This document shows positions 8,356-62,429 of a stretch of 64,000 nt of DNA, piece by piece. The notes under the pieces are model-generated. The model was not told where the DNA came from and searched no databases. It was given only the letters and a program-made list of their open reading frames with translations. The position numbers and the translations under genes are program-made. This stretch comes from a virus (Duplodnaviria > Caudoviricetes): the IMG/VR virus record IMGVR_UViG_3300027818_000041, positions 301 through 64,300 of that record; one strand, written 5' to 3'. Every line of letters begins with the position of its first letter. The first letter of the stretch is position 1.

Positions 8356-8362
8356 CTTGTCA

Positions 8363-42321: not shown

Positions 42322-43522
42322 ATTAAGTGCAACACGCATCTCCACCTTTCTACAATGTAAACGTAGATATTTATATTCCTATGTAAAACAGGAAGCTAAA
42401 ATAGCTAACCCTGCTTTTAGACTTGGGAGGGCTGTACACGAGGCTTTGGAGTTTGCAGGAAACATTTGGGTTGCAGAGGATTTGACTGCGTTTAATGCCT
42501 CTCAGGTGGAGGCTATAGTTAAGAAGTATAATGAGGTGGCAGTTAGAGAGGGTATTTATGATTCTATAGATTATGTAAATGGAGTAGAAATAGTAAAAAA
42601 TAAGTTGCTAAACTTTGAAGAAAATGGTAAAATACTTGCTTTAGAAATTAAGTTTGGTTTCAAAGATACCCCAACCATAATTACTTCCGAAGGCGTTGAG
42701 CTTATTGGAGCAATTGATAAGCTGGTACAAGTTAATGAAGATACATTGTTGGTGGTGGACTATAAAACTTCTAAAACTGTTCCTGATACAGATAAACTAA
42801 GGACAGATATTCAATTGTCCATGTATCATTATGCCGTTAATAAATTGTTTCCAGAGTATAAAAGAGTTATTCTTGCACTGGATATGCTAAGAGTAGGGGA
42901 ACTTGTCTATACCTATAGGACAGAGGAGGAATTAAAGCTCCTGGACGGGTTTTTAAATGAGGTCTATAGACAGATACTATCCTTTGATGAAAACAAAGCT
43001 ACGGGGCAATTAAACCCCCTGTGTAGTTGGTGTGATTTTAGAGGCATTTGTCCGGAGTGTAAAGAGGCTGTTTCTTCTATAGATAAAGATTTTCTCCCCC
43101 CAGAAGAGATGACCTCAGAAGATCTTCATTTAGAATGGGACACAGTAAAATCAAAGTTAAAACTATTAGAGACCAGAAAAAATGAACTATCAACCTTTCT
43201 GATGACGAGTCTTGATGAAGTTGTGGAAGATATTGCAAACAATACACATAAGTTTATAACAGTCCAAAGAAAAAGGAAATCCTTTAATCCAAAGGTGTTG
43301 TCCGATTTAATACCTAAGGATGCATTTCTGGATATGATCTCTATGTCAGCGAAGAAGGTTGTTGATTTTGCAAATAAAAACCCAAAATTAAAAGATAAGA
43401 TTTTAGCAACAAGTGAGACTTGTTTTACAAGTCCCTATATAGACACAAAGAAGCTCGATATTAAGAAACCAAGTAAGAGTTCCGCAAAGAAAGATAAATT
43501 TAAAGAAAAAATTGAGGTTTGA
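42311..43522 (+). CDS. PD-(D/E)XK exonuclease (RecB/AddB/Cas4-like) with C-terminal coiled coil
   Basis: LSATRISTFLQCKRRY; IGAIDKL...VVDYKTS; QLSMY; LCSWCDFRGIC. Confidence 0.85.
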   Translation: MSIKLSATRISTFLQCKRRYLYSYVKQEAKIANPAFRLGRAVHEALEFAGNIWVAEDLTAFNASQVEAIVKKYNEVAVREGIYDSIDYVNGVEIVKNKLLNFEENGKILALEIKFGFKDTPTIITSEGVELIGAIDKLVQVNEDTLLVVDYKTSKTVPDTDKLRTDIQLSMYHYAVNKLFPEYKRVILALDMLRVGELVYTYRTEEELKLLDGFLNEVYRQILSFDENKATGQLNPLCSWCDFRGICPECKEAVSSIDKDFLPPEEMTSEDLHLEWDTVKSKLKLLETRKNELSTFLMTSLDEVVEDIANNTHKFITVQRKRKSFNPKVLSDLIPKDAFLDMISMSAKKVVDFANKNPKLKDKILATSETCFTSPYIDTKKLDIKKPSKSSAKKDKFKEKIEV

Positions 43523-44930
43523 GATGAATAGAGAATTGCGTAGAAAATTGGGAAAAGGAGGATATACTCCTCATATAAAAGCTGAGCAACAAAAAGTCAA
43601 GATCTTGGCGTATATGGATAGTCCTACTGTAGCAACTGGGTTTGGTACTGTTAGTAGGAACGTTCTGAGTATGTTGCATGCGACTGGACTTTATGATATC
43701 ACTGTTTTTGGTATAAATCATTGGGGAGATCCTCATAATTTTCCGTTTGGAATTTTCCCGGCTGGAATAAATGGGGAGCAGGATCCTTATGGACGTAAAA
43801 AGTTTTGTGAATTTGCTTTAAATTTTGATTTTGATATATTGTTTCTATTACAAGATACTTTTATTATGGACTTTTTGCCGGAATTGATTATGGCATTAAA
43901 GAAAAGACGAGCAGATAAACCTTTTAAGTCCATTGTATATTTTCCAATTGATGGGGTTCCTAAAATAGAGTGGATTTATAATATTTCTTTTTGTGATAAG
44001 CTTGTGGCATATGCTTCATTCGCTAAGAAGTCAGCCCAAGAAATGTTAGACATTCTAAAGGGATTTCATGAGAGTGCAGGACCCCAACACCCAGTATTAA
44101 GGTTTGGTAAAAACCCTAAACACATGGGGGTAGAGACCTTTGACATAATTTTTCATGGTGTAAATGACAAGGATTTCTTTGTGTTACCCGAAGCTGATGT
44201 GAAAAACTTTAGAAAGGAGTACTTCAAAGAAAATGCAGATAAGTTTATATTTACTAATGTAAACAGAAATCAACAAAGAAAAGATATACCTAGAACAGTA
44301 AATGCGTTTAGGGTTTTTCATGACAAATATCCTAATACTTTTTTGTACTTACACATGGCTGAGAAGGATTTTGGTTGGCATATTCCTCAACTCGTGAATG
44401 CCTTTGGATTAAGATACGGGTCAGAGGTGATGACTCCTCAAAACTTTGGTCCTAATAAAGGATATCCCGTTGCTCTTTTAAATTATATTTATAACGCATC
44501 AGATTGTGGAATATCCACTACCCTCGGCGAAGGGATGGGACTAGGATGGCTTGAATTTATGCTTACAAAAACACCTGTAATTATGCCAAGTAATACAGCC
44601 ATGTCGGAGTTCATAACTGATGATACTGGGTATCTTGTCAAAAGCGGAACTCATCCTAATCTTTTGACTGTGATTCCTAACGATAATGAGGTTGTTCGTC
44701 CTATGGTTGACATAGAAAGTATGGTAACAAGAATGAACGAGGTTTTTGTAAATAGAGATAGGGCAAAAGAAGTAGCTGATAATGCTTATAAATGGGTGAA
44801 GTCTGAGATGCTTTGGACAGGCAAGATTAGAAACCAGTGGCTTGCTCTTTTTAATGATGCTGTAGTAGACCTAAAAATAAAACAAGAGGCACTTTCTGGT
44901 TCAAACACAATTAAAGCAGAAGTTTTCTAA
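43512..44930 (+). CDS. GT-B fold glycosyltransferase (GT4-like)
   Basis: TGFGTVSRN; VNRNQQRKD; NASDCGISTTLGEGMGLGWLEFM...PVI. ATG 43524 after GAGG is the likelier start. Confidence 0.85.
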   Translation: MRFEMNRELRRKLGKGGYTPHIKAEQQKVKILAYMDSPTVATGFGTVSRNVLSMLHATGLYDITVFGINHWGDPHNFPFGIFPAGINGEQDPYGRKKFCEFALNFDFDILFLLQDTFIMDFLPELIMALKKRRADKPFKSIVYFPIDGVPKIEWIYNISFCDKLVAYASFAKKSAQEMLDILKGFHESAGPQHPVLRFGKNPKHMGVETFDIIFHGVNDKDFFVLPEADVKNFRKEYFKENADKFIFTNVNRNQQRKDIPRTVNAFRVFHDKYPNTFLYLHMAEKDFGWHIPQLVNAFGLRYGSEVMTPQNFGPNKGYPVALLNYIYNASDCGISTTLGEGMGLGWLEFMLTKTPVIMPSNTAMSEFITDDTGYLVKSGTHPNLLTVIPNDNEVVRPMVDIESMVTRMNEVFVNRDRAKEVADNAYKWVKSEMLWTGKIRNQWLALFNDAVVDLKIKQEALSGSNTIKAEVF

Positions 44931-44939
44931 GGAGAGGCT

Positions 44940-46067
44940 ATGTCTGAGGTAAAAGGTATAAAGTATTTTGGACCTATTTTTAATGGGTCAGGTTACGGTA
45001 GGGCTTGCCGCGCTAATATAATGGCTCTTTATAAGCTTGGGGTTCCTTTAACTCTTCAGCCTGTAGATTTTGATAAGGCTGACCCCGAGCTAGGAGAAGA
45101 GGGTAAAATACTGGCTTCTTTAGTTGACAAAGATATAGAGTACGATGCAAAAATTTTACACACTACTCCTGAGTTTTGGAAAGATAAAATTGAGAATGAT
45201 AAAATAAATGTAGGTGTTACTTTGTGGGAAACTACAAGGTTACACCCTGCTTGGAAGGGGTACATAAATAACAGCAAAATAGCTGGTATTATGGTAGCCT
45301 GTGATTGGAATATTGAAGTATTCAAGAATAGTGGTATTACAAAACCACTGATAGCTGTTCCGTATCCAATTCCAGTCATAGAGAAATCTTCGGTTCCTAA
45401 ATATGACATTGCTGGGCTCGATCCAAATGCATACGTTTTTTATTTTGTGGGGCAGTGGCAAGAACGAAAGGATCCAATTGGTTTAATAAAGGCTTATTGG
45501 AGAGCTTTTCAGAACAACGAAAATGTTGCTCTTGTATTAAAAACCTATAGAAGTGACTACTCTGAACCAGAAAAGGAAGCTATACGTACAACCATAACTA
45601 GATTAAGGTCTGTCACTATATATGATAGATATCCTAAACTTTATTTCATTAGCGATCTTTTGACGGGTGCTGAGATTAAAGGTGTACATGCATTGGGGGA
45701 TTGTTATCTGAGTTTGGATCGAGGAGAGGGATTTGGCATGAGCCCTGCAGAGGCTGGTGCTATGGGCAATCCAATTATAGTTACTCGTTTTGGGGGAGTA
45801 ACTGAGTATGCTAAACCAGACAACAGCTATCTATGTAATTATATGTTAGATCCAGTGGGGGGTATGCCATGGATAGGATGGTACAGATCCGATCAAGAAT
45901 GGGCGGCAGCAGATGTACTTCATGGTGCTGAATTATTACAGCATGTGTTTCACAACCAAGCCGAGGCAAAAGAGAAAGGACTAAAACTACAACAGTATAT
46001 AAAAAACAACTTGTCAGAAGAAGTAATTGGTGGTAAAATACTAGCTGCTATAGATCAATTAAGATAG
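44940..46067 (+). CDS. GT-B fold glycosyltransferase (GT4-like)
   Basis: SGYGRAC; WETT; VGQWQERKD; GDCYLSLDRGEGFGMSPAEAGAMGNPII. Confidence 0.85.
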   Translation: MSEVKGIKYFGPIFNGSGYGRACRANIMALYKLGVPLTLQPVDFDKADPELGEEGKILASLVDKDIEYDAKILHTTPEFWKDKIENDKINVGVTLWETTRLHPAWKGYINNSKIAGIMVACDWNIEVFKNSGITKPLIAVPYPIPVIEKSSVPKYDIAGLDPNAYVFYFVGQWQERKDPIGLIKAYWRAFQNNENVALVLKTYRSDYSEPEKEAIRTTITRLRSVTIYDRYPKLYFISDLLTGAEIKGVHALGDCYLSLDRGEGFGMSPAEAGAMGNPIIVTRFGGVTEYAKPDNSYLCNYMLDPVGGMPWIGWYRSDQEWAAADVLHGAELLQHVFHNQAEAKEKGLKLQQYIKNNLSEEVIGGKILAAIDQLR

Positions 46068-46099
46068 GAGTAGAGTTTAAGCCACCTATGCACTCTTAC

Positions 46100-46128
46100 T
46101 TGCAGGATATAAAAAGGCTGTATATAAC
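46100..46128 (+). promoter_or_regulatory. Putative sigma70-type promoter upstream of the main glycan block
   Basis: TTGCAG (46100-46105), 17-nt spacer, TATAAC (46123-46128), in the only gap over 100 nt in the right half of the window. Confidence 0.5.
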
Positions 46129-46187
46129 GAGGATATTGTAAATTTTTTTAACTCGAGGAAAGTAAATCAAAATAACGGAGTACATGC

Positions 46188-46943
46188 ATGAAAACCATCT
46201 CGTTTCCAGTAGGGTATAGACCTCATTATTTGCAAACATTTTTGGAGCATCTCAAGCGACAAAATCTTGAAGGTTGGGAGATTTTTTGTAGTGCTGAGAA
46301 TTGTCCTCCTTGTATAGAAGTACTTAAGTCTTGTGGCTTAAACCTAAATATTCTATACAAAGCAAACTCTATTGGCAGAAAGTCACATGCTGGTGCCAGA
46401 GATAACATGTTTAATGTTTTGAACCATGTATTCAAAGTCGCTGGGTCAGACTTTAATGTTCATTTTGAAGATGATTTTTTACTTGCTCCCGACGCCCTCG
46501 ACTTAGCTAATTGGTACTATAATACGTACAAAGACAAGCCCTTGTCCTACATAACTTACGGGTTGTTTGGGTTTGCTCCCAGGGGCGATGATTACTCCGC
46601 TTTAGAAGAAGTAGATTTTTTTGAAGGATTGGGTTGGTGTACCTTTAAGGAGGGTTGGGATGCTTGTTTTAGTAAGTGTTGGTATGATGATTCGCTAGCT
46701 AGAAAGTATTTTGGTACCTATGGTTGGGATTGGGCTGTTCAGGGATTTTATCGAGAGTATAAGTTCAAGTCATTACGCCCGCTTATAAATAGGACTCAAC
46801 ACAATGGTAGAATTGGTGGTACCTGTGCCAGTGTAGAACACCACGACAAACACTACGCGCCACTGAAATGGAATACTTCTCAGCGTATCACCGAGTTTAA
46901 GCTTATTGGTACTTCAGAGGCTACGGAGGCATGGGTTAAATGA
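46188..46943 (+). CDS. Putative GT-A fold glycosyltransferase
   Basis: YRPHYLQ...NVHFEDDFLLAPD (DxD-like)...GWDW...RTQHNG layout typical of GT-A enzymes. Confidence 0.6.
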   Translation: MKTISFPVGYRPHYLQTFLEHLKRQNLEGWEIFCSAENCPPCIEVLKSCGLNLNILYKANSIGRKSHAGARDNMFNVLNHVFKVAGSDFNVHFEDDFLLAPDALDLANWYYNTYKDKPLSYITYGLFGFAPRGDDYSALEEVDFFEGLGWCTFKEGWDACFSKCWYDDSLARKYFGTYGWDWAVQGFYREYKFKSLRPLINRTQHNGRIGGTCASVEHHDKHYAPLKWNTSQRITEFKLIGTSEATEAWVK

Positions 46944-47509
46944 TTTTAGATACAATAGATTTTAAACCATTCTTTGAACACATAGAGAGCATATTTAGTT
47001 CACACTTTCCGGAGGAGGAAGTTCAAAAACTTATGGAGTTTGTGGAAATTCTTGCTGATGCTAATTTTAAATGCTATATTGCTAACATGAAAGTTATTGC
47101 TAATAGAAAATCACCAAACGTTGACGATACACTTATTGCGGATCTAGAGTGGGTTGCTCGTAGCGTGGGGGAGTATAGGGTAGCCTCCAAAGCCAACATT
47201 AATAAATACGTATCAATGTTTAAATCTGTTAATGAGCCTACTTCCCCAGATTCTTGGGTGTCTGATGATATAGTCTACAGCATAGGGGAAATGATGGATC
47301 GACTTTCTATCGAGACCATTAAGCGAGAAGACTTCAGAGTTAATAATCGTCCAGCGCATATGACAGAGGCTACTCTAAATCTAAGCAATAGAGTAGAGAT
47401 TTATTTACGAACCAAGTTAGCAGAGATTGATGCTAAAGGGTTCTATGAATGTAATAATGAACAACGTACGTATGACCTTGAGGGGATCATTAAAGATTTA
47501 GCTTTGTAA
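46940..47509 (+). CDS. DUF4254-like helical protein
   Basis: SIGEMMDRLSIETIK motif; also present in 59131-59490. Confidence 0.5.
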   Translation: MILDTIDFKPFFEHIESIFSSHFPEEEVQKLMEFVEILADANFKCYIANMKVIANRKSPNVDDTLIADLEWVARSVGEYRVASKANINKYVSMFKSVNEPTSPDSWVSDDIVYSIGEMMDRLSIETIKREDFRVNNRPAHMTEATLNLSNRVEIYLRTKLAEIDAKGFYECNNEQRTYDLEGIIKDLAL

Positions 47510-47522
47510 TAAGAGAGTTTTT

Positions 47523-48359
47523 ATGCGGCTAATACCAAAAGTTCTACATTTGTATTGGGACAGAAGTCCAATGTCTTTTCCTCAAGCACTGACTCCTGTT
47601 TCATTCAAAAAATATAATCCTGATTGGGAGATAAATGTATATATTCCTATTCAGGACTATAATGGTAGTGCTAGATACATTCCTGATTATGTTGGTGTTG
47701 ATTTTTTTAAGCTAGTGACCGAGGTTCCAGGAATTAATATCATAGAAGTAGACCTTTCCAAGTACGATATAAATTTAGGGCATCATAATATTCTTAGGTC
47801 TGACATTCTAAGGTACCATTTGCTTTATGAGATCGGGGGTGTGTGGTCTGACTTTGATGTTTTATGGCTGAAGCCTATGACCCACTTCTATAATATTGAG
47901 TATCATGGCTCAGTACCTGTAGATGAAATAACTGCAGTAGTTTCATTCATACAAGGTACAGGAGGAGGACACAGTATAGGGATAATGATTCATAGTAAAA
48001 ATGATCCATATGCTAAGTCACTAATCGAATTAACTAAGCAGGTTAAACCTCCGTTTAGTCATGAGATTTTTGGGGGGAGTATGCTAAATACACATTACCC
48101 AACACTGGAGTCATTGAGTAAGTTTACTGGATTAGTTGGCGCTAAGTTTGAAACATATTATCCTTATATAATCCATCCTCCAGTACCCACAATACAAAAA
48201 CTGTACAGAGGAGTAGATTTGTCTCCTATTCAAAGTAATAACGTTCTGTGCCTTCATTGGTACAACGGACACCGCTTAAGTAAAGAGTACCTGAATGGTG
48301 ATGGTCTAAGAAGAGATTGTAGTATGACAAGAATTATTAAACAGGAAGGTTATGCCTAG
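47523..48359 (+). CDS. GT32-like (OCH1/DXD) glycosyltransferase
   Basis: IPKVLHLYW; RSDILRYHLLYEIGGVWSDFDV. Confidence 0.8.
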   Translation: MRLIPKVLHLYWDRSPMSFPQALTPVSFKKYNPDWEINVYIPIQDYNGSARYIPDYVGVDFFKLVTEVPGINIIEVDLSKYDINLGHHNILRSDILRYHLLYEIGGVWSDFDVLWLKPMTHFYNIEYHGSVPVDEITAVVSFIQGTGGGHSIGIMIHSKNDPYAKSLIELTKQVKPPFSHEIFGGSMLNTHYPTLESLSKFTGLVGAKFETYYPYIIHPPVPTIQKLYRGVDLSPIQSNNVLCLHWYNGHRLSKEYLNGDGLRRDCSMTRIIKQEGYA

Positions 48360-49173
48360 AATATCTATAGTGTCACCATACTTTAACCGTAAGCCGGAGT
48401 TATATAGGACTCTTCTATCTCTAAAGTTGTCTCTAATTAAAGATTTTGAATATATTGTGGTAGACGACGCCAGCTCTCCGGTTCATCGCCTTGAGGATTT
48501 ACTACCAGAGTTTCCGTTTCTTAAACTAAAGAGAGTGGATCCTCACAATAAGTTTTATCTAAATCCTTGCATTCCTTACAATATGGGCATTGCTGAAGCT
48601 ACTGGGGAGTTTATAATACTACAAAGTCCAGAATGTTTACACATGGGAGATATTTTAAGTTATGTAGGTAATAATATTAGTATAAATAAATATTTTGTGT
48701 TCTCGTGTTACTCCCTAGATGAGCAGAAGACAAAAGCACTTCAGAGCGTAGATTTCAATGCAGATCCTTTTACATTGTATACTGCTATTTTGAACACTAT
48801 AGGTGGACTTTCTACGAATAGCTGTGAGTCTTCTGCTGGTCGTTACAATACTTGGTTTGCACACTCTAAGTACAGACCTTGTATGTTCAACTTTTTAGTG
48901 GCTCTTACAGCCAAAGATATGAAAGAACTTGGTGGTTTCAATGAAGTTTTTTATGATGGGCACTCTTATGATGACACAGAGTTTTCTGAGAGAGTGCTGA
49001 AGAAGAAAATGGAGGTAGTGATGATAGACGAACCATATTGTTTACACCAATACCATCCATCAGTTCTTAGTAATATTCCTAATTTTGCAGCTAGACTAGA
49101 GAAGAATAGATTTTTATATGAAAAGTGTAAAGAGTCTCCTGAGTATTATACAAATAATCGTTTTATAAAATAG
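48352..49173 (+). CDS. GT2 family glycosyltransferase
   Basis: ISIVSPYFNR, IVVDDAS, YNMGIAEATGE, GGFNEVF...YDDTEF. Confidence 0.85.
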   Translation: MPRISIVSPYFNRKPELYRTLLSLKLSLIKDFEYIVVDDASSPVHRLEDLLPEFPFLKLKRVDPHNKFYLNPCIPYNMGIAEATGEFIILQSPECLHMGDILSYVGNNISINKYFVFSCYSLDEQKTKALQSVDFNADPFTLYTAILNTIGGLSTNSCESSAGRYNTWFAHSKYRPCMFNFLVALTAKDMKELGGFNEVFYDGHSYDDTEFSERVLKKKMEVVMIDEPYCLHQYHPSVLSNIPNFAARLEKNRFLYEKCKESPEYYTNNRFIK

Positions 49174-49180
49174 GATTTAT

Positions 49181-50254: not shown

Positions 50255-50257
50255 GTT

Positions 50258-53276: not shown

Positions 53277-53279
53277 TTT

Positions 53280-54089: not shown

Positions 54090-54111
54090 TCATAAATATA
54101 TAGGAGCTTTT

Positions 54112-54903: not shown

Positions 54904-54911
54904 GAGGAGTT

Positions 54912-55340
54912 ATGATTCTTATTGCTCATAGAGGAAATATAAACGGACCTAATCCCGAGAAAGAAAACAATCCTGATTATATTAAAGAGGCGCTTTCTTT
55001 GGGGTACGATGTAGAGGTAGATGTTTGGGATGTGAGGGGCGGGCTTATGTTAGGACACGATTATCCACAACATTCAATACCATTTAGTTTCTTAGAAAAC
55101 AAACATTTATGGATTCATTGTAAAACTGTAGAGACACTTAGTCGTTTAGTTATATACCCAATCAACTGTTTCTTTCATAATGTAGATGATGTTGTTCTGA
55201 CCTCAAAAGGCTACCTGTGGACTTATCCTGGAAAACCGCTATATGGAAACTCTGTGTGTGTTTTGCCAGAGCTTTTTCCAGAGCAGACTATTCCAAACAT
55301 TATTGGTATGTGCAGTGATTTTGTAGAGAAATACAAATGA
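54912..55340 (+). CDS. Short glycerophosphodiester phosphodiesterase-like protein
   Basis: IAHRGN...EN...DVEVDVW...GHD...WIHCK motifs; 142 aa. Confidence 0.7.
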   Translation: MILIAHRGNINGPNPEKENNPDYIKEALSLGYDVEVDVWDVRGGLMLGHDYPQHSIPFSFLENKHLWIHCKTVETLSRLVIYPINCFFHNVDDVVLTSKGYLWTYPGKPLYGNSVCVLPELFPEQTIPNIIGMCSDFVEKYK

Positions 55341-56716
55341 TTAAGTTAATAGTATTTGATCTAGATGGCGTCTTAGTAGAATCCAAAGAAATACATTTCT
55401 TATCTCTGAACGATGCTTTACGTGCGGTGGATGAGAGGTATGTTATTTCAAAGGATGACCATCTACGAAACTTTGATGGCTTGCCTACTAGAAAAAAACT
55501 AATAAAGCTTACAGACACCAAACTTCTTCCTCAGAAGTACTATGATACAATCTGGAAAACTAAACAGGAGTTTACCACAAAATACATAAGACAGACCCCA
55601 AGAAATGATAGATTGTGTAATTTGTTTAGTAAGCTGAAAGAGAGTGATGTTTCCATATATGTTTGTTCCAATGCCATCAGGCAAACGACTAAGCTATATC
55701 TTATAGCTTTAGGACTTATTGAATATGTGGATGGGTTCATTTCTAATGAGGACATTGTGCACCCTAAACCACATCCAGAAATGTATATGAAAGCGATGGT
55801 TATGGAGCATGTGTCCCCCAAGGAAACACTTATTATAGAAGATTCCCATGTAGGAATTACTGCTGCAGTAGAATCTGGAGGAAACGTTCTTATAGTTAAA
55901 AATCCAAGTGAAACCACAGAAGAGCGTGTTTTTGGTCGTATATCACACATAAATAATAAGTCCACCATTAAAATAAAATGGAAAGGTGACAAGATGAACA
56001 TTATTATTCCGGCGGCTGGGGCAGGTAGTAGATTTGCAAATGCAGGATATACATTTCCCAAACCATTAATCGATGTTAATGGAAAACCAATGCTTCAGGT
56101 TGTGGTTGAAAATCTTAATATAGAGGGAATTTACACATATATAGTACAAAAAGAGCATTATGATAAGTATAATCTCAAATATCTGCTGAACATGCTCACT
56201 CCAGGCTGTAATATCGTCTGTGTTGATAGTTTAACGGAGGGGGCAGCCTGCACTACCCTTTTAGCTAAAGACTTTATAAATAACGATTCTGCCCTTTTAA
56301 TTGCCAATTCGGATCAGTATATAAAATGGGATAGTGTAGAGTTTATGTATACAATGACAGCAGGTCAAGTAGATGGAGGTATCCTGACTTTTCGTAGTAC
56401 ACATCCAAAGTGGTCATATGCTAGGCTGGACGAGGAAGAATATGTTTGTGAGGTTGCTGAGAAACGTGTCATATCTGACATGGCTACTGTTGGGATCTAC
56501 TACTGGGCTCATGGGTCTGACTACGTTAAGTACGCAGAACAAATGATTAACAAGAATATTAGAGTTAATAATGAGTTTTATGTAGCACCTGTGTTTAATG
56601 AGGCTATAGCGGATAATAAAAAATTTAAGATCTTTGATGTAGACAAGATGTTAGGGCTAGGAACTCCAGAGGATTTACAGCATTTTCTACGGGAGCTTGA
56701 GAATGGTAGAGTTTAG
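55337..56716 (+). CDS. Fusion of a HAD-IA phosphatase and a BcbE-like sugar nucleotidyltransferase
   Basis: FDLDGV...KPHP...IEDS (HAD), then MNIIIPAAGAGSRF...PKPLI...EGAAC...NSDQ...HPKWSY...NNEFYV...LGTPEDL. Confidence 0.85.
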   Translation: MIKLIVFDLDGVLVESKEIHFLSLNDALRAVDERYVISKDDHLRNFDGLPTRKKLIKLTDTKLLPQKYYDTIWKTKQEFTTKYIRQTPRNDRLCNLFSKLKESDVSIYVCSNAIRQTTKLYLIALGLIEYVDGFISNEDIVHPKPHPEMYMKAMVMEHVSPKETLIIEDSHVGITAAVESGGNVLIVKNPSETTEERVFGRISHINNKSTIKIKWKGDKMNIIIPAAGAGSRFANAGYTFPKPLIDVNGKPMLQVVVENLNIEGIYTYIVQKEHYDKYNLKYLLNMLTPGCNIVCVDSLTEGAACTTLLAKDFINNDSALLIANSDQYIKWDSVEFMYTMTAGQVDGGILTFRSTHPKWSYARLDEEEYVCEVAEKRVISDMATVGIYYWAHGSDYVKYAEQMINKNIRVNNEFYVAPVFNEAIADNKKFKIFDVDKMLGLGTPEDLQHFLRELENGRV

Positions 56717-57407
56717 TAATGATGAAAAGCAAGTTATAAATACTTCTCAAAAAATATATGATAGCTTTAATGATTTCATCTTCAGTAACGATACTAAGGT
56801 TTTCTCCAAGCTTATAGCTCGAACTGTGCTTTTCAAGCAGGTTATGGATGTTCCTGGGGATATAGTAGAGTGTGGCGTGTTTAAGGGGTCTGGGGTTCTT
56901 ACTTGGTTGAAACTCAAGCACTGTCTAGCCTATAATAGCTTTAAGAAAATTGTTGGCTTTGATTTCTTTAATACAGCAGAACTACTAAAGATTCTAAACG
57001 GCATAGATCGAGAGCGGATGGAAGACCTTTTTATATCAAGAGGATTTTCTTTGAATGAATCCTATGTTAAAGTACTTGAAGATATAATTCATAGTGCCGG
57101 ATTTAGTAAGTCTACTTATGAGTTGATCTCAGGAGATATCTCTAACACAGCCTTTGATTATGTACGCAAAAGACCTGGGGCTAAAATATCACTGCTCTAT
57201 CTTGATCTTGATTTAGAGAAACCCACTTATGACGCACTTGGGGCTTTTTGGGATATAGTGTCTGTAGGAGGTATAGTGGTCTTTGATGAGTATGCTTATC
57301 ATCAATGGTCGGAGGCAAGAGGAGCAGATCGTTTTTTTAATTCGAAGAAAATAAAAATAGTTACTCTTCCATACAATGCTCCAACAGCCTATGTTGTAAA
57401 GGAGTAG
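56703..57407 (+). CDS. TylF/MycF/NovP-family sugar O-methyltransferase
   Basis: VPGDIVECGVFKGSG, GFDFF, LLYLDLDL, GGIVVFDEY. ATG 56703 after GGAG preferred to the track TTG 56697. Confidence 0.85.
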   Translation: MVEFSNDEKQVINTSQKIYDSFNDFIFSNDTKVFSKLIARTVLFKQVMDVPGDIVECGVFKGSGVLTWLKLKHCLAYNSFKKIVGFDFFNTAELLKILNGIDRERMEDLFISRGFSLNESYVKVLEDIIHSAGFSKSTYELISGDISNTAFDYVRKRPGAKISLLYLDLDLEKPTYDALGAFWDIVSVGGIVVFDEYAYHQWSEARGADRFFNSKKIKIVTLPYNAPTAYVVKE

Positions 57408-57409
57408 TC

Positions 57410-58096
57410 ATGCGTGTAGCCTTATTACAGACTATGTATGACGAACATGAGATTGTACTACACAACATTAATGTTGTGTCTAACCTGTATAAAGACTCTT
57501 TGTTTTTTGTGACACATTCTTTTGACAGGAACTCAGAGACGTTGGAAGTAATTAAAAATAGAAGTAAATACAAGGCGCTAAAGAATCTTGTTGGGGATGT
57601 TGAACGGTTAAAATTACCGGCGTATGCTGTGACCAGGAATTACTCTGATTTATTTTCTAATCTTTATGCCTCAAGGGAGAATGTAGATCTTGTGGTGGCT
57701 CTCATGGGGGACACAAAAATAGTTGATGCAAAAAGCTTTGAGAGAAGGTTTAATGAAATGATGGAGCATAATTACAAATTATATGCATGTCAGGCTAAAA
57801 CACAAGTATTTTGGTCCAGTGATAAAACATTAGACAGAGTACAGACTGATGACCTTGCAGATTTTATGCCTCAGTTGTTTTTTGTAGACGGGCATTTCAC
57901 AAAAACTACCAGGGTTTTTTGTAATGTGCCAATAACAAATGAATACACAACAGAACAATGTTTAGGTGATGCCTTTTTACAGCAAGCGCAGTTGTCTGAT
58001 ATTGGAAGATTAAATAAAGAGCCAACTTATTGGAAAGACTACCAGGATGGTATAATATGGCAGGCTTTAACCAATGGGGCTCCGGGTAGACCATAG
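57410..58096 (+). CDS. Hypothetical protein in the glycan island
   Basis: AAGGAG RBS; 228 aa; no family recognised. Confidence 0.55.
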   Translation: MRVALLQTMYDEHEIVLHNINVVSNLYKDSLFFVTHSFDRNSETLEVIKNRSKYKALKNLVGDVERLKLPAYAVTRNYSDLFSNLYASRENVDLVVALMGDTKIVDAKSFERRFNEMMEHNYKLYACQAKTQVFWSSDKTLDRVQTDDLADFMPQLFFVDGHFTKTTRVFCNVPITNEYTTEQCLGDAFLQQAQLSDIGRLNKEPTYWKDYQDGIIWQALTNGAPGRP

Positions 58097-58105
58097 AGGA
58101 ACGAT

Positions 58106-59122
58106 ATGGAGACAGTTCTTGTTACCGGTAGTCAGGGGTTTGTAGGATCATATTTTTGTGCAGAACTACTAAAGAATAACTATAAGGTTATAGGCATTGA
58201 TAACTACTCAAAGTACGGTAAAGTATTAAGAGGACACGATTCGCATCCAAATTTTGTTTTTTATGAGGGGGATGTTCTTGATGTGCTTCCAGCAAAGGCT
58301 TTTTTCGAGGTGGATTACATCGTTTGTCTTGCTGCTATGATTGGGGGTATCTCTTATTTTCATAGATATGCATACGATTTATTGGCAACCAACGAGCGCA
58401 TTACAGCTACTACTTTTGATAAGGCGATATCTTTGTATAAGCAACATCGTCTTAAGAAAATTGTCAATGTATCAAGCAGTATGGTTTTTGAAAATACAGA
58501 TGTTTTTCCTACTCCGGAAGAAGAAGTAATGCATTGTCCTCCTCCTCTAAGCACATACGGGTTTCAGAAATTGGCTACGGAGTATTTCTGTAAGGGTGCC
58601 TTTGAGCAGTATGGGTTGCCTTATACAATAATAAGACCTTTTAATTGTATTGGTATAGGGGAGGAAGAGGCATTGTCTGATGATGTCGCTGTATATGTTG
58701 GTAATAAAAAAATGCTTATGAGTCATGTTTTACCTGACTTTATTTTTAAGGCATTACACTTAGGACCAGACGAAGAATTTCCTATTTTGGGGGAAGGTAA
58801 TCAAGTCCGTCATTTCACAAACGGTAAGGATCTTGCTAGAGGAATTAGATTAGCAATGGAATCCGAAGCTGCCAACGGAGAGGTGTTTAATATTTCGCAT
58901 CCTAGACCTGTGTCCATCAAAGAATTAGCTGAGATGGTTTGGGGTTTTATTCACAATACACCTATAAAGTTAAAATCATATCCTCCTTATAAATATGATG
59001 TTCAGTATAGGAGCCCTGTTGTGGAGAAAGCGGAAAGAATTCTGGGTTTTAAGGCAGAGATAGATGTAGAGGAGAGTGTAAAGGAAGTTATAGATTGGAT
59101 GCGAAATAACATAAAAGACTGA
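58106..59122 (+). CDS. Extended SDR nucleotide-sugar epimerase/reductase (Fcl/GME-like features)
   Basis: TGSQGFVG, LAAMIGGI, SSSMVF, YGFQK, RPFNCIG, Q.RHFT...DLA. Confidence 0.85.
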   Translation: METVLVTGSQGFVGSYFCAELLKNNYKVIGIDNYSKYGKVLRGHDSHPNFVFYEGDVLDVLPAKAFFEVDYIVCLAAMIGGISYFHRYAYDLLATNERITATTFDKAISLYKQHRLKKIVNVSSSMVFENTDVFPTPEEEVMHCPPPLSTYGFQKLATEYFCKGAFEQYGLPYTIIRPFNCIGIGEEEALSDDVAVYVGNKKMLMSHVLPDFIFKALHLGPDEEFPILGEGNQVRHFTNGKDLARGIRLAMESEAANGEVFNISHPRPVSIKELAEMVWGFIHNTPIKLKSYPPYKYDVQYRSPVVEKAERILGFKAEIDVEESVKEVIDWMRNNIKD

Positions 59123-59130
59123 GAGGATGT

Positions 59131-59490
59131 ATGTGTGATTCTTTAGGAGACTATATAGAAACATTTATAAAAAAAGCGGTTACTGCTTATGATCAGAGTT
59201 TTAATTGCCCCGATACATTTGAAGAGTTAATTAGCTTTGGTGAGCTAGTAGATCGATTGTCTATTATAAATTTCAAGTTATATAAATTAAAAGACGAAGT
59301 TATGGATCGGCAGGATGATGATACTTTCAAGGCATGGGCGGCTGTGGAGGATGTTAAACTCGTAAGAGAAAGATCTCGTCTTAAAAAATGTATAGATGAA
59401 AAGATAATTGCCATGATTACTCGCGTGTACAAGGGCGACATCTCCTGTGGGTTTAATCCAGAGGTTAAAAAGTACGGACAGTTGCCCTAA
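59131..59490 (+). CDS. DUF4254/DUF6165-like helical protein
   Basis: SFGELVDRLSIINFKLY...RSRLKKCIDE. Confidence 0.5.
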   Translation: MCDSLGDYIETFIKKAVTAYDQSFNCPDTFEELISFGELVDRLSIINFKLYKLKDEVMDRQDDDTFKAWAAVEDVKLVRERSRLKKCIDEKIIAMITRVYKGDISCGFNPEVKKYGQLP

Positions 59491-60125
59491 TGAGTGGCAA
59501 GTTGTTTCAGGATACAAAAACCTTTTGGGAAGAATGCCATGAGAAAGGTCTTGAAGTTTCTTTATCAGGGTCTAAATATGATGAGGTTATAGATTCTCTC
59601 AAGATAGGGGCATATATAATTCCTGGGGCTAAAGTGTTAGAGATAGGCACTGGTCTTGGCTTTGTAACAAAGGGCTTATATGATAAAGGAGTATCTGTAA
59701 GCGCTCTAGACATTTCGGAAGTTTGTTTAGCCAGAGTTAAAGATTATTGTGAGCAGCTTTTTCCAGTCTCGGAAATAAACAAGTTACCGTCTAATTATTT
59801 TGATTGTATTATTTGTGTAAATGTGGTACAACATATACCTACAGAACTATTAAAGGTAGAACTGGTCAATTGCATTAGGGCATTAAGGAAATATTCTGGT
59901 GTTTTTGCTGTAGAGTTCGTCTCTAATAAAGATGCGGAAGATACTGGTATTGACGCAGACCTAAGCACAATAAAGAACGGTCTTTGTTGTAGAACACCTA
60001 AGTATTTTTCAAGTTTGGTGGAAGAGGCTGGGGGAAATTGTAATATTATAATTAGTAATAAATGTGATATAAACGGGATACATGGTTGCCATGTAGCTCA
60101 CATTTGGAGGAATAGGGATGTTTGA
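59490..60125 (+). CDS. Class I SAM-dependent methyltransferase
   Basis: KVLEIGTGLG, ALDISE, FDCIICVNVVQHI. Confidence 0.85.
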   Translation: MSGKLFQDTKTFWEECHEKGLEVSLSGSKYDEVIDSLKIGAYIIPGAKVLEIGTGLGFVTKGLYDKGVSVSALDISEVCLARVKDYCEQLFPVSEINKLPSNYFDCIICVNVVQHIPTELLKVELVNCIRALRKYSGVFAVEFVSNKDAEDTGIDADLSTIKNGLCCRTPKYFSSLVEEAGGNCNIIISNKCDINGIHGCHVAHIWRNRDV

Positions 60126-61110
60126 AGGACAACGTATTTTGATCACGGGTTCTACAGGATCGTGGGGGCAAGAACTAACTAAACAGCTTCTTGAGTCCTA
60201 TAATCCTAAAAAAATTATAGTGTATTCTCGTGGAGAATTGGCGCAAGTAAATATGCAGCGGAAGTTTAATGATCCTCGCTTGGAGTTTGTTATAGGAGAC
60301 GTTAGAGATTATTCTGCTGTTGAGCGAGTATTTGCTAGAGGTGTAGATTATGTCGCCCACCTGGCGGCGTTGAAACACGTTCCTGTTTGTGAAAACCAGC
60401 CACAGGAGGCAATCAAGACAAATATTGATGGTACAACCAATCTCGTAAATGCCGCGATTAAATATAAGATTAAGAAATTTCTGGATGTGAGTACTGACAA
60501 GGCTGTATCCCCCACAAATACATATGGTTTTACTAAAGCAGTAGGTGAAAAAATAGTTATACAAGCAAATAATTTAACAGATGATACCGATTTTGTTTGC
60601 ATTAGAGCTGGAAATGTGTTAGGTTCCAATGGTAGTGTAGTTCCTCTATTTATTGATCAGATAGCTCGTTATAATAAGATCACTGTAACCTGTGGTAAAA
60701 TGACTCGTTACTTTATGACTCTTCCTGAGGCTATTAGTTTAATATTCAAAGCGGCTGAACACTCTGTTGGTGGAGAAACCTTCGTAATGCATATGCCGGC
60801 TTTTCATATTCAAACTTTAGCAGAGGTTATGATCGCTCACTACGGTAATTCTCTTACTAAGATAGAAGAAATAGGAATTAGAGAAGGCGAGAAGATGGAT
60901 GAGCTTCTTATTTCAGAACACGAGGCTCCTCGTTCTGTTGTGTATGATGATGATTATTATGTTATTAAATCGGATCTTAAGATAAACAGGGATTATTCTC
61001 ATTTGGATAATAAATCTAAGGTACCTTTTACCAGTTATTCATCTTCTTATGAAATAAAAGATTTTGATTATTTGCATACTTTGTTGAAGCGTGGAGGGTT
61101 TTTGAAGTGA
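60118..61110 (+). CDS. UDP-GlcNAc 4,6-dehydratase (PseB/FnlA-like)
   Basis: ILITGSTGSWG, GDVRD, AALKHVP, TNIDGT, STDKAVSPTNTYGFTK, GNVLGSNGSVVPLF, MTRYFM, GIREGEK. Confidence 0.9.
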   Translation: MFEGQRILITGSTGSWGQELTKQLLESYNPKKIIVYSRGELAQVNMQRKFNDPRLEFVIGDVRDYSAVERVFARGVDYVAHLAALKHVPVCENQPQEAIKTNIDGTTNLVNAAIKYKIKKFLDVSTDKAVSPTNTYGFTKAVGEKIVIQANNLTDDTDFVCIRAGNVLGSNGSVVPLFIDQIARYNKITVTCGKMTRYFMTLPEAISLIFKAAEHSVGGETFVMHMPAFHIQTLAEVMIAHYGNSLTKIEEIGIREGEKMDELLISEHEAPRSVVYDDDYYVIKSDLKINRDYSHLDNKSKVPFTSYSSSYEIKDFDYLHTLLKRGGFLK

Positions 61111-61901
61111 TAATACATGTTTTAGGTAGTAACGGTATGTTGGGTAGATATGTATTTATGTATCTAAATAGTAAATTTAGTAATGTAGTAGGATATACAA
61201 GAAAGAATATAGACGCTTCAGTTACTGACGACATTCCTTTGGTTCTTTCAAAGGGGGATGTAGTGGTTAATTGTATTGGGTTGATTCCTCAGCGGGGGGT
61301 CAAAAATCCTATTAACTATATAACAATAAATGCTCTATTTCCACATCTAGTTTCTTCTATGTGTGATACAGTAGGTGCTACGTTCGTCCACATCAGCACA
61401 GACTGCGTTTTTTCAGGAACTACAGGTAGTTACACGGAGGATTCTGTACACGATGCTACAGATTTATATGGTAGAACCAAGTCTTTGGGCGAACCAGAAA
61501 ATGCTACAACTATAAGAACCTCTATTATCGGGGAAGAATTGGTAAATAAAAAATCGCTATTGGAGTGGGTTAGATCAATGGCAGGTAAAGATATAAATGG
61601 ATATACCAACCACTATTGGAATGGGGTTACCTGTCTTTGTTTAGCCAAAATTATAGCAGATACTATATCAAACAATTCATTTTGGGTTGGGGTTAAACAT
61701 ATATATTCTTCAGAAGTTGTTAGTAAGTATCTATTGGTGGGGCTAATAAGTAATATTTACGGTCTGGATATTAAAATCAATCCTGTAAAAACACCCACCA
61801 CATGTAATAAATCTCTTAAATCTGTAAGAGATGATATAATCATAGAGGTGCCTAGTCTGGGCATTCAAATAGCCGAACAAAAGGATTATAGTTTGTTGTG
61901 A
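61107..61901 (+). CDS. RmlD-like NDP-4-keto-6-deoxyhexose reductase
   Basis: VLGSNGMLG, VNCIG, HISTDCVFSG, YGRTKSLGE, IRTSIIG. Confidence 0.85.
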   Translation: MIIHVLGSNGMLGRYVFMYLNSKFSNVVGYTRKNIDASVTDDIPLVLSKGDVVVNCIGLIPQRGVKNPINYITINALFPHLVSSMCDTVGATFVHISTDCVFSGTTGSYTEDSVHDATDLYGRTKSLGEPENATTIRTSIIGEELVNKKSLLEWVRSMAGKDINGYTNHYWNGVTCLCLAKIIADTISNNSFWVGVKHIYSSEVVSKYLLVGLISNIYGLDIKINPVKTPTTCNKSLKSVRDDIIIEVPSLGIQIAEQKDYSLL

Positions 61902-61907
61902 AAGAAG

Positions 61908-61936
61908 TTGCCTTTGTTGGAATTGTATGGTATACT
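61908..61936 (+). promoter_or_regulatory. Sigma70-type promoter with extended -10, restarting transcription before the clamp loader and polymerase genes
   Basis: TTGCCT (61908-61913), 17-nt spacer ending TGG, TATACT (61931-61936); GGAGG RBS before ATG 61959. Confidence 0.65.
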
Positions 61937-61958
61937 TAATTGTATATCAGGAGGGATT

Positions 61959-62429
61959 ATGGATGATCTTAAGAGTCAGGGAATAAAGATAATTGTTTCA
62001 GAGTTTGATGGTGTTATGACTGATGGTACTTCTGCAACAGATACCATGGGATTTACAGTTATGAAGAATGTATATATGCCTGATTTTGAAGCAATTAATA
62101 GTTTGAAGAGTATGGGGTATATATTTGTATTTCTTTCTACAGATAATATGGTTACGTATAATCTTTTGAAGTCTAAGAATATTCCATTTTTCTGGGCTCA
62201 GGCAGACAAACCATCTGTTTTAGGTAAGATTCTTCAAAGGTATGAGTTTACTCCTGATCATCTTCTGTACATTGGTAGTAAGGTCTCTGATTATAGGTGT
62301 ATGACTATGGCAGTCGCCTCTGCTTGTCCAGAGGGTTCTATAAGTAAAACCACCCAGTCTACCATGATTATCCCTGCCAAGGGTGGTCAAGGGGTGATCT
62401 CCAAACTACTATCAATTCTTCAATTGTAA
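61959..62429 (+). CDS. KdsC/YrbI-like HAD protein with degenerate catalytic motifs
   Basis: IVSEFDGVMTDG and YIGSKVSD versus canonical DVDGVLTDG and GDD..D. The track TTG 61908 falls on the -35 box, so ATG 61959 is preferred. Confidence 0.7.
   Translation: MDDLKSQGIKIIVSEFDGVMTDGTSATDTMGFTVMKNVYMPDFEAINSLKSMGYIFVFLSTDNMVTYNLLKSKNIPFFWAQADKPSVLGKILQRYEFTPDHLLYIGSKVSDYRCMTMAVASACPEGSISKTTQSTMIIPAKGGQGVISKLLSILQL

Follow-up and report, generated by a model that had tools for sequence, protein, structure and literature searches.

A putative glycan assembly island built on a small, lineage-wide glycosyltransferase locus in uncultured large phages

In mycobacteriophages, as Freeman et al. reportedly described in Cell Host Microbe in 2023, virions are glycosylated in the cytoplasm by soluble, phage-encoded glycosyltransferases (GTs). 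This is said to take few genes and no nucleoside diphosphate (NDP)-sugar pathways, with the C-terminal tails of capsid and tail-tube subunits as acceptors and with methyltransferases accompanying the GTs. Chloroviruses (B736L, A64R) and Megavirus also encode soluble GTs, here combined with their own NDP-sugar routes, although these are viruses of eukaryotes in which the acceptor is a known capsid or fibril protein (PMC4691112). Here, we analyze an 18,918-bp island of 22 open reading frames (ORFs; positions 43512–62429) in IMG/VR virus record IMGVR_UViG_3300027818_000041, using 64,000 of the 64,300 bases (hereafter “the window”) of this 64.3-kb linear contig. The island has soluble GTs and NDP-sugar routes in common with chloroviruses and Megavirus, and phage-encoded soluble GTs in common with mycobacteriophages, the latter likeness being judged from descriptions. 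To our knowledge, no target of a large export-less glycan cluster has yet been demonstrated except in mycobacteriophages and giant viruses.

Conserved anchors and a variable centre

Comparison with related phages indicates that the island is an expanded, strain-specific form of a small lineage-wide GT locus, with one part shared across a sub-clade and another part unique to the window. The order nuclease–GT472–GT375, with 0–1.8 kb between the two GT genes, was kept in all 11 related loci that were compared (L001–L003, L006–L008, and L029–L033), and the left-flank nuclease, syntenic in the same loci, marks a conserved boundary. Wherever a contig reached the 3′ end of the locus (L001–L003, L006–L008, and L032), a KdsC-like gene and then the clamp-loader gene followed; L029–L031 and L033 terminated inside the island. 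In its minimal form (L001/L006/L008, and L007), the locus carried ThyA+DHFR+NUDIX or ThyX+NUDIX between the two GTs, and two small methyltransferase-fold genes after GT375. An intermediate form (L003) held an extra GT2, a methyltransferase, a sulfotransferase, and a phosphoribosyltransferase-like gene. The expanded sub-clade was composed of L029–L033 (records G005–G009) and the window, and its common genes (GT251, a 189-aa protein, GT278, a 2-epimerase, an inverting dehydratase, and an RmlD-like reductase) displayed 53–72% identity, compared to 45–49% for the helicases of the same phages. Since the identity of this module exceeds that of the helicases, the pattern suggests that the module moves between phages.

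The centre of the island (50258–60125 in the window) differed in every member, and the window shared only its GDP-mannose 4,6-dehydratase (Gmd) gene, with G005. In relatives, the centre held GT17, GT4, GT2, and Glyco_trans_1_2 proteins, methyltransferases, sulfotransferases, and a pyruvyl transferase with an FrhB-like partner, along with a C5 DNA methylase and a resolvase. Overall, the content between the conserved flanks ranged from ~1.2 kb to ~16 kb, expanded forms spanning 12–16 kb and the insert in the window ~16 kb. Contigs of four of the five island-bearing relatives ended within the island, which may reflect strain-level microdiversity breaking the assemblies.

The two anchor GTs were as conserved as core replication genes. 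Identity to orthologues reached 48–52% for GT472 in 11/11 relatives and 47–55% for GT375 in all relatives, next to 45–49% for the helicase, 45–47% for the primase, 39–43% for the nuclease, and 32–37% for DnaJ, i.e., the level of helicase, primase, and RecA, and above that of nuclease, DnaJ, RuvC, and clamp loader. More than 1184 GT472 homologues were found in the database, and the 120 listed below the window’s own fragment were 48–56% identical. AlphaFold (AF2) models were obtained with a predicted local distance difference test (pLDDT) score of 86 for GT472 and 90 for GT375, and the top Protein Data Bank (PDB) match of both anchors, by sequence and by fold, was chlorovirus NY-2A B736L (3oy2; sequence E ~1e-5; Foldseek E 1e-21 for GT472 and 2e-16 for GT375; 15–17% identity). 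GDP-mannose is the best ligand of B736L, a retaining GT-B encoded by a virus with autonomous capsid glycosylation, although the acceptor of B736L itself is unproven (PMC4691112). The next fold matches were generic GT4 enzymes (BshA, MshA, sucrose-phosphate synthase, and TreT), T4 β-glucosyltransferase fell outside the top 50 fold matches, and the best matches in a viral structure library were unnamed entries, uncultured-phage GTs, and giant-virus GTs. Matches to PF20706 (“GT4-conflict”) among homologues remained sub-threshold (24.7 bits for P0031, 12–14 bits in the window) and were set aside.

Inteins of the LAGLIDADG type interrupted two locus genes in relatives, namely the GT375 orthologue (727 aa; L033:4877–7060) and the RmlD-like reductase orthologue (697 aa; L032:16389–18482). 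Inteins occupy conserved sites of needed genes, and their presence within glycan-pathway enzymes is unusual. At the right-hand end of the locus, the KdsC-like gene had tblastn matches in L001–L003, L005–L008, and L032. In its product, the nucleophile Asp is replaced by Glu (E-x-D), with the block “SE[IFV]DG” invariant in all six aligned sequences. The protein may work alongside the two anchor GTs, either without catalysis or with an altered chemistry, and its sequence is consistent with a role in which it may bind, rather than hydrolyze, a sugar phosphate. A Kdo pathway, as suggested by the KdsC-like gene, was rejected because no KdsA or KdsB was present in five relatives.

Export partners and candidate acceptors

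An initial annotation, made from the window alone, had described the island as free of membrane and export components and had placed the acceptor of the glycan in the cytoplasm, either on a virion protein or on DNA. Membrane features were evaluated with a home-made combination of a Kyte–Doolittle 19-residue scan, an N-terminal h-region scan, and a lipobox scan (i.e., not TMHMM/SignalP), which returned no transmembrane (TM) helix, signal peptide, or lipobox in 22/22 island products; hydrophobic peaks corresponded to Rossmann or HAD β1 strands. Across every ORF of the window contig and of G001 (228 kb), G005 (120 kb), G006 (97 kb), and G007 (106 kb), the hydropathy scan returned no protein with >4 TM segments; its only hits were small proteins with 2–4 hydrophobic segments and giant structural ORFs in which two peaks arose by chance. 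Wzx (PF01943) was absent from nine records (G001–G009) in a search to which control genomes responded, the window contig likewise had no Wzx match, and no ABC permease appeared in the hydropathy scan, which would show one, no separate ABC2_membrane search having been made. Genes for a flippase, a polymerase, an ABC permease, and a polyprenyl-phosphate transferase are thus absent from the sampled lineage, which upholds the annotation for island and contig and extends it to relatives; the island-bearing records cover 8–41% of the genome and largely overlap, and the near-complete G001 is without the expanded island. Loci for O-antigen or capsule synthesis of the Wzx/Wzy or ABC-transporter type likewise combine NDP-sugar pathways and several GTs between conserved flanks and around a variable centre, but they include a membrane flippase or transporter, an initiating transferase, and a polymerase or ligase, none of which was found here. 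A cytoplasmic acceptor is plausible, although the lack of TM helices is not diagnostic of one, because the non-initiating GTs of O-antigen synthesis are also soluble and the host could supply initiator, flippase, and ligase.

Given these patterns, we tentatively favor the cytoplasmic glycosylation of phage (virion) proteins by the island enzymes, and the most likely acceptor would be at least one structural protein of the phage, in the virion or tail. The block would then form a phage-resident, fully soluble glycan assembly line, in which GT472 and GT375 would attach the initial sugars to an acceptor that is conserved throughout the lineage, while the swappable downstream module would extend and methylate the chain, so that each phage would display its own glycan type. 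Assembly would proceed in the cytoplasm, directly on the acceptor and without a lipid carrier, the analogues being virion glycosylation in mycobacteriophages and the autonomous glycosylation of capsids and fibrils by chloroviruses and Megavirus. Among the observations that argue for such a scheme, the conservation of the anchors at helicase and primase level, across a lineage whose members purge different restriction sites and so seem to have different hosts, points to a phage-borne acceptor, and a conserved inner pair with a swappable outer module is what we would expect of a glycan started on a phage-encoded acceptor that is itself conserved. The solubility of all 22 products, the match of both anchors to B736L, and the sugar-enzyme trio paralleled in Megavirus also speak in its favor. 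In addition, T-x-S-G was the top enriched gapped tetrapeptide of the window virion proteins (326–34021), with 33 occurrences vs. 6.9 ± 2.8 expected (4.9×), next to 1 vs. 2.1 expected in non-structural proteins and 0.3–1.8× for permutations of its residues. The fuller motif reads [TIV]-T-x-S-G-[TVS], with a 2.4–3.7-fold enrichment in the structural proteins of relatives, and as a weak lead T-x-S-G may be an acceptor motif.

Several points weigh against this interpretation. The T-x-S-G excess is partly generic, as T4 structural proteins also show it (9 vs. 3.7 expected, 2.4×), and the conservation of its sites among homologues is patchy. None of the island GTs falls into a family with known glycan-initiating activity on protein. 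The island lies within a replication and nucleotide-metabolism operon and not beside structural genes, a position that fits DNA modification or early host remodeling at least equally. Soluble GTs are also normal in lipid-linked pathways, the sugar identities come from family matches alone, with several NCBIfam scores below equivalog cut-offs, and the window contig represents ~25% of its phage, about three quarters of the genome being unseen. A more specific version, in which virions would be coated with a strain-specific, O-antigen-like methylated heteroglycan assembled lipid-free from a conserved two-enzyme core and a horizontally swappable outer module, is conceivable but rather unlikely. 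If true, it would represent a protein-anchored, lipid-free analogue of the lipopolysaccharide (LPS) core/O-antigen architecture under the same diversifying pressure. A glycan on the virion would also be relevant to host recognition, to defence and the evasion of grazing among phages of aquatic Bacteroidota, and to the glycan diversity that can be generated without lipid carriers.

Restriction-site avoidance provides a cheap, sequence-only test that helps to separate DNA from non-DNA acceptors and is applicable to other cases. Compared to expectations from a second-order Markov model, GGCC (a HaeIII-type site) was observed 7 times in the window vs. 76.9 expected (P 1e-24) and 0 times in the island vs. 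25.9 expected, and TTTAAA 38 times in the window vs. 67 expected. GGCC counts were normal in G001, G005, and G006, and the relatives lacked other sites, including GCGC in G005 (0/72 observed/expected) and G007 (3/39), GGATCC in G001 (1/16) and G006 (0/9.8), GCATGC in G001 (0/8), and GAATTC in G006 (7/22). In a 50-kb control stretch of T4, in which all C is glucosylated hydroxymethylcytosine, GGCC and GCGC stood at 1.15 and 1.05 of expectation, respectively, although GATC was depleted to 0.36, i.e., this control is not perfectly clean. Site purging differs between relatives and therefore suggests selection by host type II enzymes on accessible bases, the differing sites implying different hosts or restriction systems. 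The near-elimination of GGCC indicates DNA that is exposed to restriction, which argues against a glycan on cytosine.

DNA hypermodification, in which the anchors, and perhaps the whole island, would glycosylate a hydroxylated or hydroxymethylated pyrimidine as in T4, RB69/DLP3, RL38J1, or SP-15/YerA41/Carin-5, would be in keeping with the genomic neighborhood but appears improbable. The anchors are positioned between nuclease/RuvC genes and clamp loader/PolA, the thymidylate synthase cassettes of relatives sit between the two anchors, one relative carries a C5 DNA methylase inside its island, and the anchors yielded the same generic GT4 fold matches as the GT-B enzymes of DNA-glycan clusters. 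In those clusters, GT-B enzymes resembling BshA, MshA, and sucrose-phosphate synthase are found with a ThyA homologue, a HAD phosphatase, a nucleotidyltransferase, and sugar enzymes, often by the polymerase, and build oligosaccharides on 5-hydroxycytosine (5hoC), 5-hydroxymethylcytosine (5hmC), or modified T (PMC13326640, PMC12686479, bioRxiv 10.1101/2023.12.21.572611). Furthermore, a divergent ThyA-like gene lies between the anchors of G007 (L033:3951–4766; PF00303 E 5e-14; “PPC” catalytic motif), with Asn177 and Asp169 kept and Leu143 not; if it encoded a deoxyuridine monophosphate hydroxymethylase, as it could, DNA would again be a candidate acceptor in G007. On the other hand, modified bases would be expected to be shielded, whereas the window and its relatives show strong, host-specific site purging, and the window holds no enzyme making an acceptor hydroxyl on a base. 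The sole ThyA of the 86%-complete G001 is canonical at the diagnostic residues taken from PMC13326640 (Asp169, Asn177, and Leu143), with DHFR adjacent, and L007 encodes ThyX instead. A Tet/JBP search returned no match, but control genomes were also silent in that search. Besides the absence of T4 β-glucosyltransferase among the top fold matches, the anchors are mostly acidic to neutral (pI 5.1–6.8, a weak proxy for DNA binding), the island methyltransferases are small-molecule types and not DNA methylases, and the lineage assembles to >300 kb, unlike phages with oligosaccharide-modified DNA, which resists standard sequencing (PMC12686479). Sparse, motif-specific DNA modification is possible. 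Of the two acceptors put forward by the initial annotation, virion protein is hence the best reading, and DNA is disfavored by GGCC avoidance and by the lack of a base-hydroxylating enzyme.

Two further explanations place the product elsewhere. Remodeling of the host envelope, which we consider unlikely although less so than DNA, is how the literature usually interprets clusters of this kind in cyanophages and jumbo phages (PMC1079782, PMC7824862, PMC7029224). The phage GTs would extend a host undecaprenyl-diphosphate (Und-PP)-linked primer at the inner membrane face, and a host flippase with a ligase or oligosaccharyltransferase would display a phage-specified O-antigen, capsule, or O-glycan, blocking competitors or progeny re-adsorption. 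The predicted sugars (6-deoxy-L-HexNAc and 3,6-dideoxyhexose) and the sulfate, pyruvate, and methyl groups of relatives are typical surface-polysaccharide chemistry, the non-initiating GTs of O-antigen synthesis are without TM helices, location in an early or middle operon would fit a function exerted early, such as host remodeling, and a near-universal primer such as Und-PP-HexNAc could account for the conserved anchors. However, no initiating transferase, flippase, polymerase, or ligase was found in 64–228 kb of five related records, and the anchors are lineage-core genes with helicase-level conservation, one of them intein-bearing in a relative, whereas auxiliary host-manipulation genes are usually sporadic. 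The relatives purge different restriction sites, implying different hosts, yet their anchors are the same, and the nearest structural relatives of these anchors are viral (B736L and giant-virus GTs) and not LPS enzymes. A free cytoplasmic product, i.e., a soluble methylated oligo- or polysaccharide or a small-molecule glycoside kept in the infected cell, seems as improbable as DNA. Its analogues would be the polymethylated polysaccharides of mycobacteria and the compatible solutes made by a GT4 with a HAD phosphatase; accordingly, sucrose-phosphate synthase, trehalose synthases, GlgM, and the methylmannose-polysaccharide mannosyltransferase 7qsg are among the anchor fold matches, the minimal cassette consists of GT4, GT4, two methyltransferases, and a HAD-like protein, and nothing requires export. 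Nevertheless, the HAD-like protein is without its nucleophile Asp in all members aligned, strain-level hypervariability is expected for a recognised surface and not for a metabolite, and we know of no precedent for a free cytoplasmic glycan product in phages. An acceptor other than phage protein, host envelope, DNA, or free product is highly improbable.

Island genes, predicted sugars, and phage lineage

Island families were assigned by Pfam, NCBIfam, and PDB sequence searches (Table 1). ORF calls bore out the 22 co-directional genes of the initial annotation, all on the + strand and separated by 0–13 bp or overlapping, with the sole exception of a 120-bp gap. Its inventory was recovered for three GT-B (43512, 44940, and 51229), seven nucleotide-sugar enzymes (49181, 50258, 52119, 54064, 58106, 60118, and 61107), the HAD–nucleotidyltransferase fusion, two methyltransferases (56697 and 59490), and the accessory genes, five in number (46940, 54912, 57410, 59131, and 61908). 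Its four GT-A-like enzymes were reduced to three with support, namely 46188 (weak GNT-I), 47523 (Gly_transf_sug, DXD), and 48352 (GT2 + Glyco_transf_7C), the fourth (53280) having sub-threshold matches only. The proposed multi-sugar glycan was likewise retained, based on at least two rare-sugar routes, 6–7 GTs in total, and the two methyltransferases.

Table 1 Features of the island and its flanks in the window.
Feature	Position	Strand	Basis or remark
Left flank: PD-(D/E)XK recombination nuclease (outside island)	42311..43522	+	PF12705 E 5e-27
Anchor 1, “GT472”: GT4-type retaining GT-B, EX7E motif	43512..44930	+	weak Glycos_transf_1
Anchor 2, “GT375”: GT4-type GT-B, distant paralogue of GT472	44940..46067	+	Glycos_transf_1 E 1e-8
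Sole sizeable intergenic gap	46068..46187	.	joins lineage-wide anchor to sub-clade module
“GT251”: GT-A-like glycosyltransferase	46188..46943	+	weak GNT-I E 0.006
Acidic 189-aa accessory protein	46940..47509	+	no Pfam match
“GT278”: GT-A glycosyltransferase, DXD motif, GT32-like	47523..48359	+	PF04488 E 3e-7
GT2-family GT-A glycosyltransferase	48352..49173	+	PF00535 E 2e-8 + PF02709
Non-hydrolysing UDP-HexNAc 2-epimerase, WecB/FnlC/Mg536 type	49181..50254	+	PF02350 E 1.5e-79; TIGR00236 230 bits
GDP-mannose 4,6-dehydratase (Gmd)	50258..51229	+	PF16363 E 4e-122; TIGR01472 409 bits (cut-off 415)
Short GT-B-type glycosyltransferase, 296 aa, window-specific	51229..52119	+	Glycos_transf_1 E 4e-5, below cut-off
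ColD-type pyridoxal/pyridoxamine phosphate (PLP/PMP)-dependent GDP-4-keto-6-deoxymannose 3-dehydratase	52119..53276	+	PDB 2gms (ColD/WbdK) E 2e-63
Possible fourth GT-A, 269 aa, window-specific	53280..54089	+	sub-threshold GT2-type matches E 0.017–0.07
UDP-glucose/GDP-mannose dehydrogenase-like, without C-terminal nucleotide-sugar-binding domain	54064..54903	+	PF03721 + PF00984 only
142-aa protein, N-terminal “IAHRG” motif, glycerophosphodiesterase (GDPD)-like	54912..55340	+	no Pfam match; PDB GDPD 1v8e E 0.4 (weak)
β-phosphoglucomutase (β-PGM)-like HAD + sugar-1-phosphate nucleotidyltransferase fusion	55337..56716	+	PF13419 E 1e-24; PF00483 E 2e-11
TylF-type sugar O-methyltransferase	56697..57407	+	PF05711 E 2e-9
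228-aa protein, window-specific	57410..58096	+	no Pfam match
Extended short-chain dehydrogenase/reductase (SDR), epimerase/reductase	58106..59122	+	PF01370 E 1e-38
DUF4254-like 119-aa protein	59131..59490	+	PF14063 E 1e-3, below cut-off
Class I S-adenosylmethionine (SAM) methyltransferase	59490..60125	+	Methyltransf_23/25/11 E 1e-9 to 2e-8
Inverting UDP-GlcNAc 4,6-dehydratase, PseB/FnlA/Mg534 type	60118..61110	+	PF02719 E 4e-95
RmlD-like 4-reductase	61107..61901	+	PF04321 E 3e-19
KdsC/YrbI-like HAD protein, right-hand anchor	61908..62429	+	PDB Kdo-8-P phosphatase 3n07 E 6e-7, full length
Right flank: AAA+ clamp-loader subunit (outside island)	62442..63512	+	PF13177 E 1e-26
Right flank: PolA 3′-5′ exonuclease (outside island)	63515..window end		PF01612 E 6e-23

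The island is predicted to encode a route from UDP-GlcNAc to a 2-acetamido-2,6-dideoxy-L-hexose (60118 + 61107 + 49181), in which the RmlD-like reductase 61107 would catalyze the second step toward UDP-2-acetamido-2,6-dideoxy-L-hexose. This trio follows the same three-enzyme logic, with methylation, as Mg534–Mg536 of Megavirus, and virions of Megavirus chilensis contain L-RhaNAc, probably L-QuiNAc, and their 3-O-methyl derivatives (PMC4691112). Gmd (50258) and the ColD-type dehydratase (52119) are predicted to catalyze the first steps from GDP-mannose to a 3,6-dideoxyhexose, the SDR 58106 being a candidate final reductase of this GDP-linked route. At least two complete rare-sugar routes can thus be counted, the 58106 step being inferred, in addition to the truncated dehydrogenase and the HAD–nucleotidyltransferase. 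In 52119, a His is aligned with the ColD His (“GHI” vs. “HHI”), at a position where aminotransferases presumably carry the PLP Lys, and NCBIfam RfbH was the top family match. PDB matches of 58106 were generic UDP-Glc 4-epimerase-like proteins, with GDP-fucose synthase only at E 8e-12. The 49181 epimerase exceeded the TIGR00236 cut-off; the 60118 dehydratase scored 309 bits against TIGR03589 and 242 bits against TIGR04130, both below cut-offs. The 54064 dehydrogenase-like protein covers positions 65–304 of the 413-position TIGR03026 model, which makes it an inactive truncation or else a short form that has so far escaped recognition.

Within the shared module, identity to relatives reached 59–64% for GT251 and 60–70% for the 189-aa protein in L029–L033, 60–68% for GT278 in five IMG/VR contigs, 57–60% for the 2-epimerase in L029, L030, L032, and L033, 67–72% for the inverting dehydratase in L030, L032, and L033, and 53–56% for the RmlD-like reductase in L030 and L032, where the L032 copy is the intein-bearing one. 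Homologues of the GT2 protein were 40–43% identical in L031 and L032, Gmd was shared with L030 only (75%), and the short GT-B 51229 had no homologue in G001 or G005–G007. A “DRLSI” block is common to the 189-aa protein and the DUF4254-like protein (59131–59490). The HAD–nucleotidyltransferase fusion, whose PDB matches were 4evw and β-PGM 1lvh, recurred at 46–59% identity in scattered metagenome-assembled genomes (Melainabacteria, Nitrospiraceae, candidate phyla radiation, and Micrarchaeota), a distribution that yields no host clue, and formed a conserved gene pair with the “IAHRG” protein in L051, L052, L057, and L061. A GT251 homologue (36%) was also found elsewhere in G001 (L021:3942–6190), off the main locus and beside a radical-SAM gene and a methyltransferase, where the three may form a second small modification cassette. 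For GT472, a start at ATG 43524 is more likely than at TTG 43512. Neither a sigma-70 promoter scan (77 vs. 69 ± 7 in shuffles) nor a terminator scan (9 vs. 10.6 in shuffles) of the island rose above background. Recent bacterial acquisition or chimeric assembly was rejected, as the GC content of the island matches that of the rest of the contig, the island (0 GGCC) is purged of this site like the rest, and synteny extends to 11 relatives.

Terminal repeats are absent from the source contig, which interrupts a gene at either end, and all window genes called except one lie on the + strand. Its first 34 kb (window 1–34 kb) encode very large virion/tail-like proteins of 927, 1840, 2693, 756, 887, 766, and 878 aa, just one of the seven with a PHROG tail match, followed at 34–43.5 kb by a sliding-clamp-like protein, RecA, DnaB, DnaG, DnaJ, RuvC, and the PD-(D/E)XK nuclease, and 3′ of the island by the clamp-loader subunit and the PolA 3′-5′ exonuclease domain. 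A clamp-loader search returned 16 IMG/VR loci, 7 of them (L001–L003 and L005–L008) at 39–44% identity on contigs of 43–228 kb. The longest of these contigs (G001, 228 kb) is syntenic with the window along the whole window length and was rated 86% complete, i.e., a genome of ~265 kb, from which the window contig would represent about a quarter of a jumbo phage genome of roughly 265 kb. G001 encodes DnaK, the window DnaJ, and homologues of GT472 were found on 308-kb and 313-kb contigs. The GenBank phage collection contained no DNA near-identical to the window, its best helicase match was ≤32% identical, and a pattern scan for the window nuclease returned no viral relatives.

By gene content, and not by marker-gene phylogeny, the window phage fits the moraphages, aquatic jumbo phages of ≤307 kb described in 2025 with predicted Bacteroidota hosts, DnaJ/DnaK, and four GT orthogroups among the conserved genes that the authors examined (PMC12619734). 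Jumbo size, DnaJ/DnaK, conserved GTs, and multi-copy homing endonucleases are all present in the window lineage, whose host is probably Bacteroidota; on the other hand, the moraphage description (PMC12619734) does not include the glycan locus of the window or its expansion. A 470-aa homing-endonuclease-like gene of the window (8357–9769; phrog_559) has a C-terminal region with weak similarity to the Mom family (Pfam E 1e-4, below cut-off), and copies of this gene are found in L003, L031, and L032, directly adjoining the anchor GTs in relatives. Upstream of the region syntenic with the window, G005, G007, and G001 carry single ORFs of 8048 (32474–56620), 8639 (4130–30049), and 7473 codons (171769–194190), respectively, which would rank among the largest phage proteins.

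Comparison with described glycan clusters

The locus offers a clean comparative system, with a minimal cassette (two GT4, two methyltransferases, and the KdsC-like gene) and forms of 12–16 kb at one fixed position. Clusters known to glycosylate DNA (T4 α/β-GT; RB69/DLP3 polyarabinosyl-5hoC, PMC13326640; Carin-5/YerA41/SP-15, PMC12686479; MT/5mYOX- or ThyS-linked GTs) also have GT-B enzymes with generic GT4 folds, and their neighbors are likewise replication genes, a thymidylate synthase, a HAD protein, a nucleotidyltransferase, and sugar enzymes. They differ from the window lineage, in which no hydroxylating or hydroxymethylating enzyme was found, ThyA is canonical or replaced by ThyX, and site avoidance is strong, and in which the window combines 6–7 GTs with sugar methylation.

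The “LPS/cell-wall” clusters of large cyanomyoviruses and other jumbo phages also share features with the island: they include NDP-sugar epimerases and dehydratases, nucleotidyltransferases, and several GT families, they are polymorphic between related phages, and their function is likewise without experimental demonstration. P-SSM2 carries 24 LPS/cell-wall-type genes (PMC1079782) and S-SCSM2R 22 such genes, including 13 GTs (PMC12801897), and the class has been reviewed for jumbo phages (PMC7824862); calling the island unusually elaborate for a phage, as the initial annotation did, was therefore overstated. What sets the window apart, as judged from descriptions, is a different lineage, a single contiguous operon inside the replication module, a lineage-core GT4 pair, a degenerate KdsC-like gene, and a ColD-type route. 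Taken together, the island belongs to a known class of large-phage glycan clusters, of which it displays the core-plus-variable architecture with unusual clarity.

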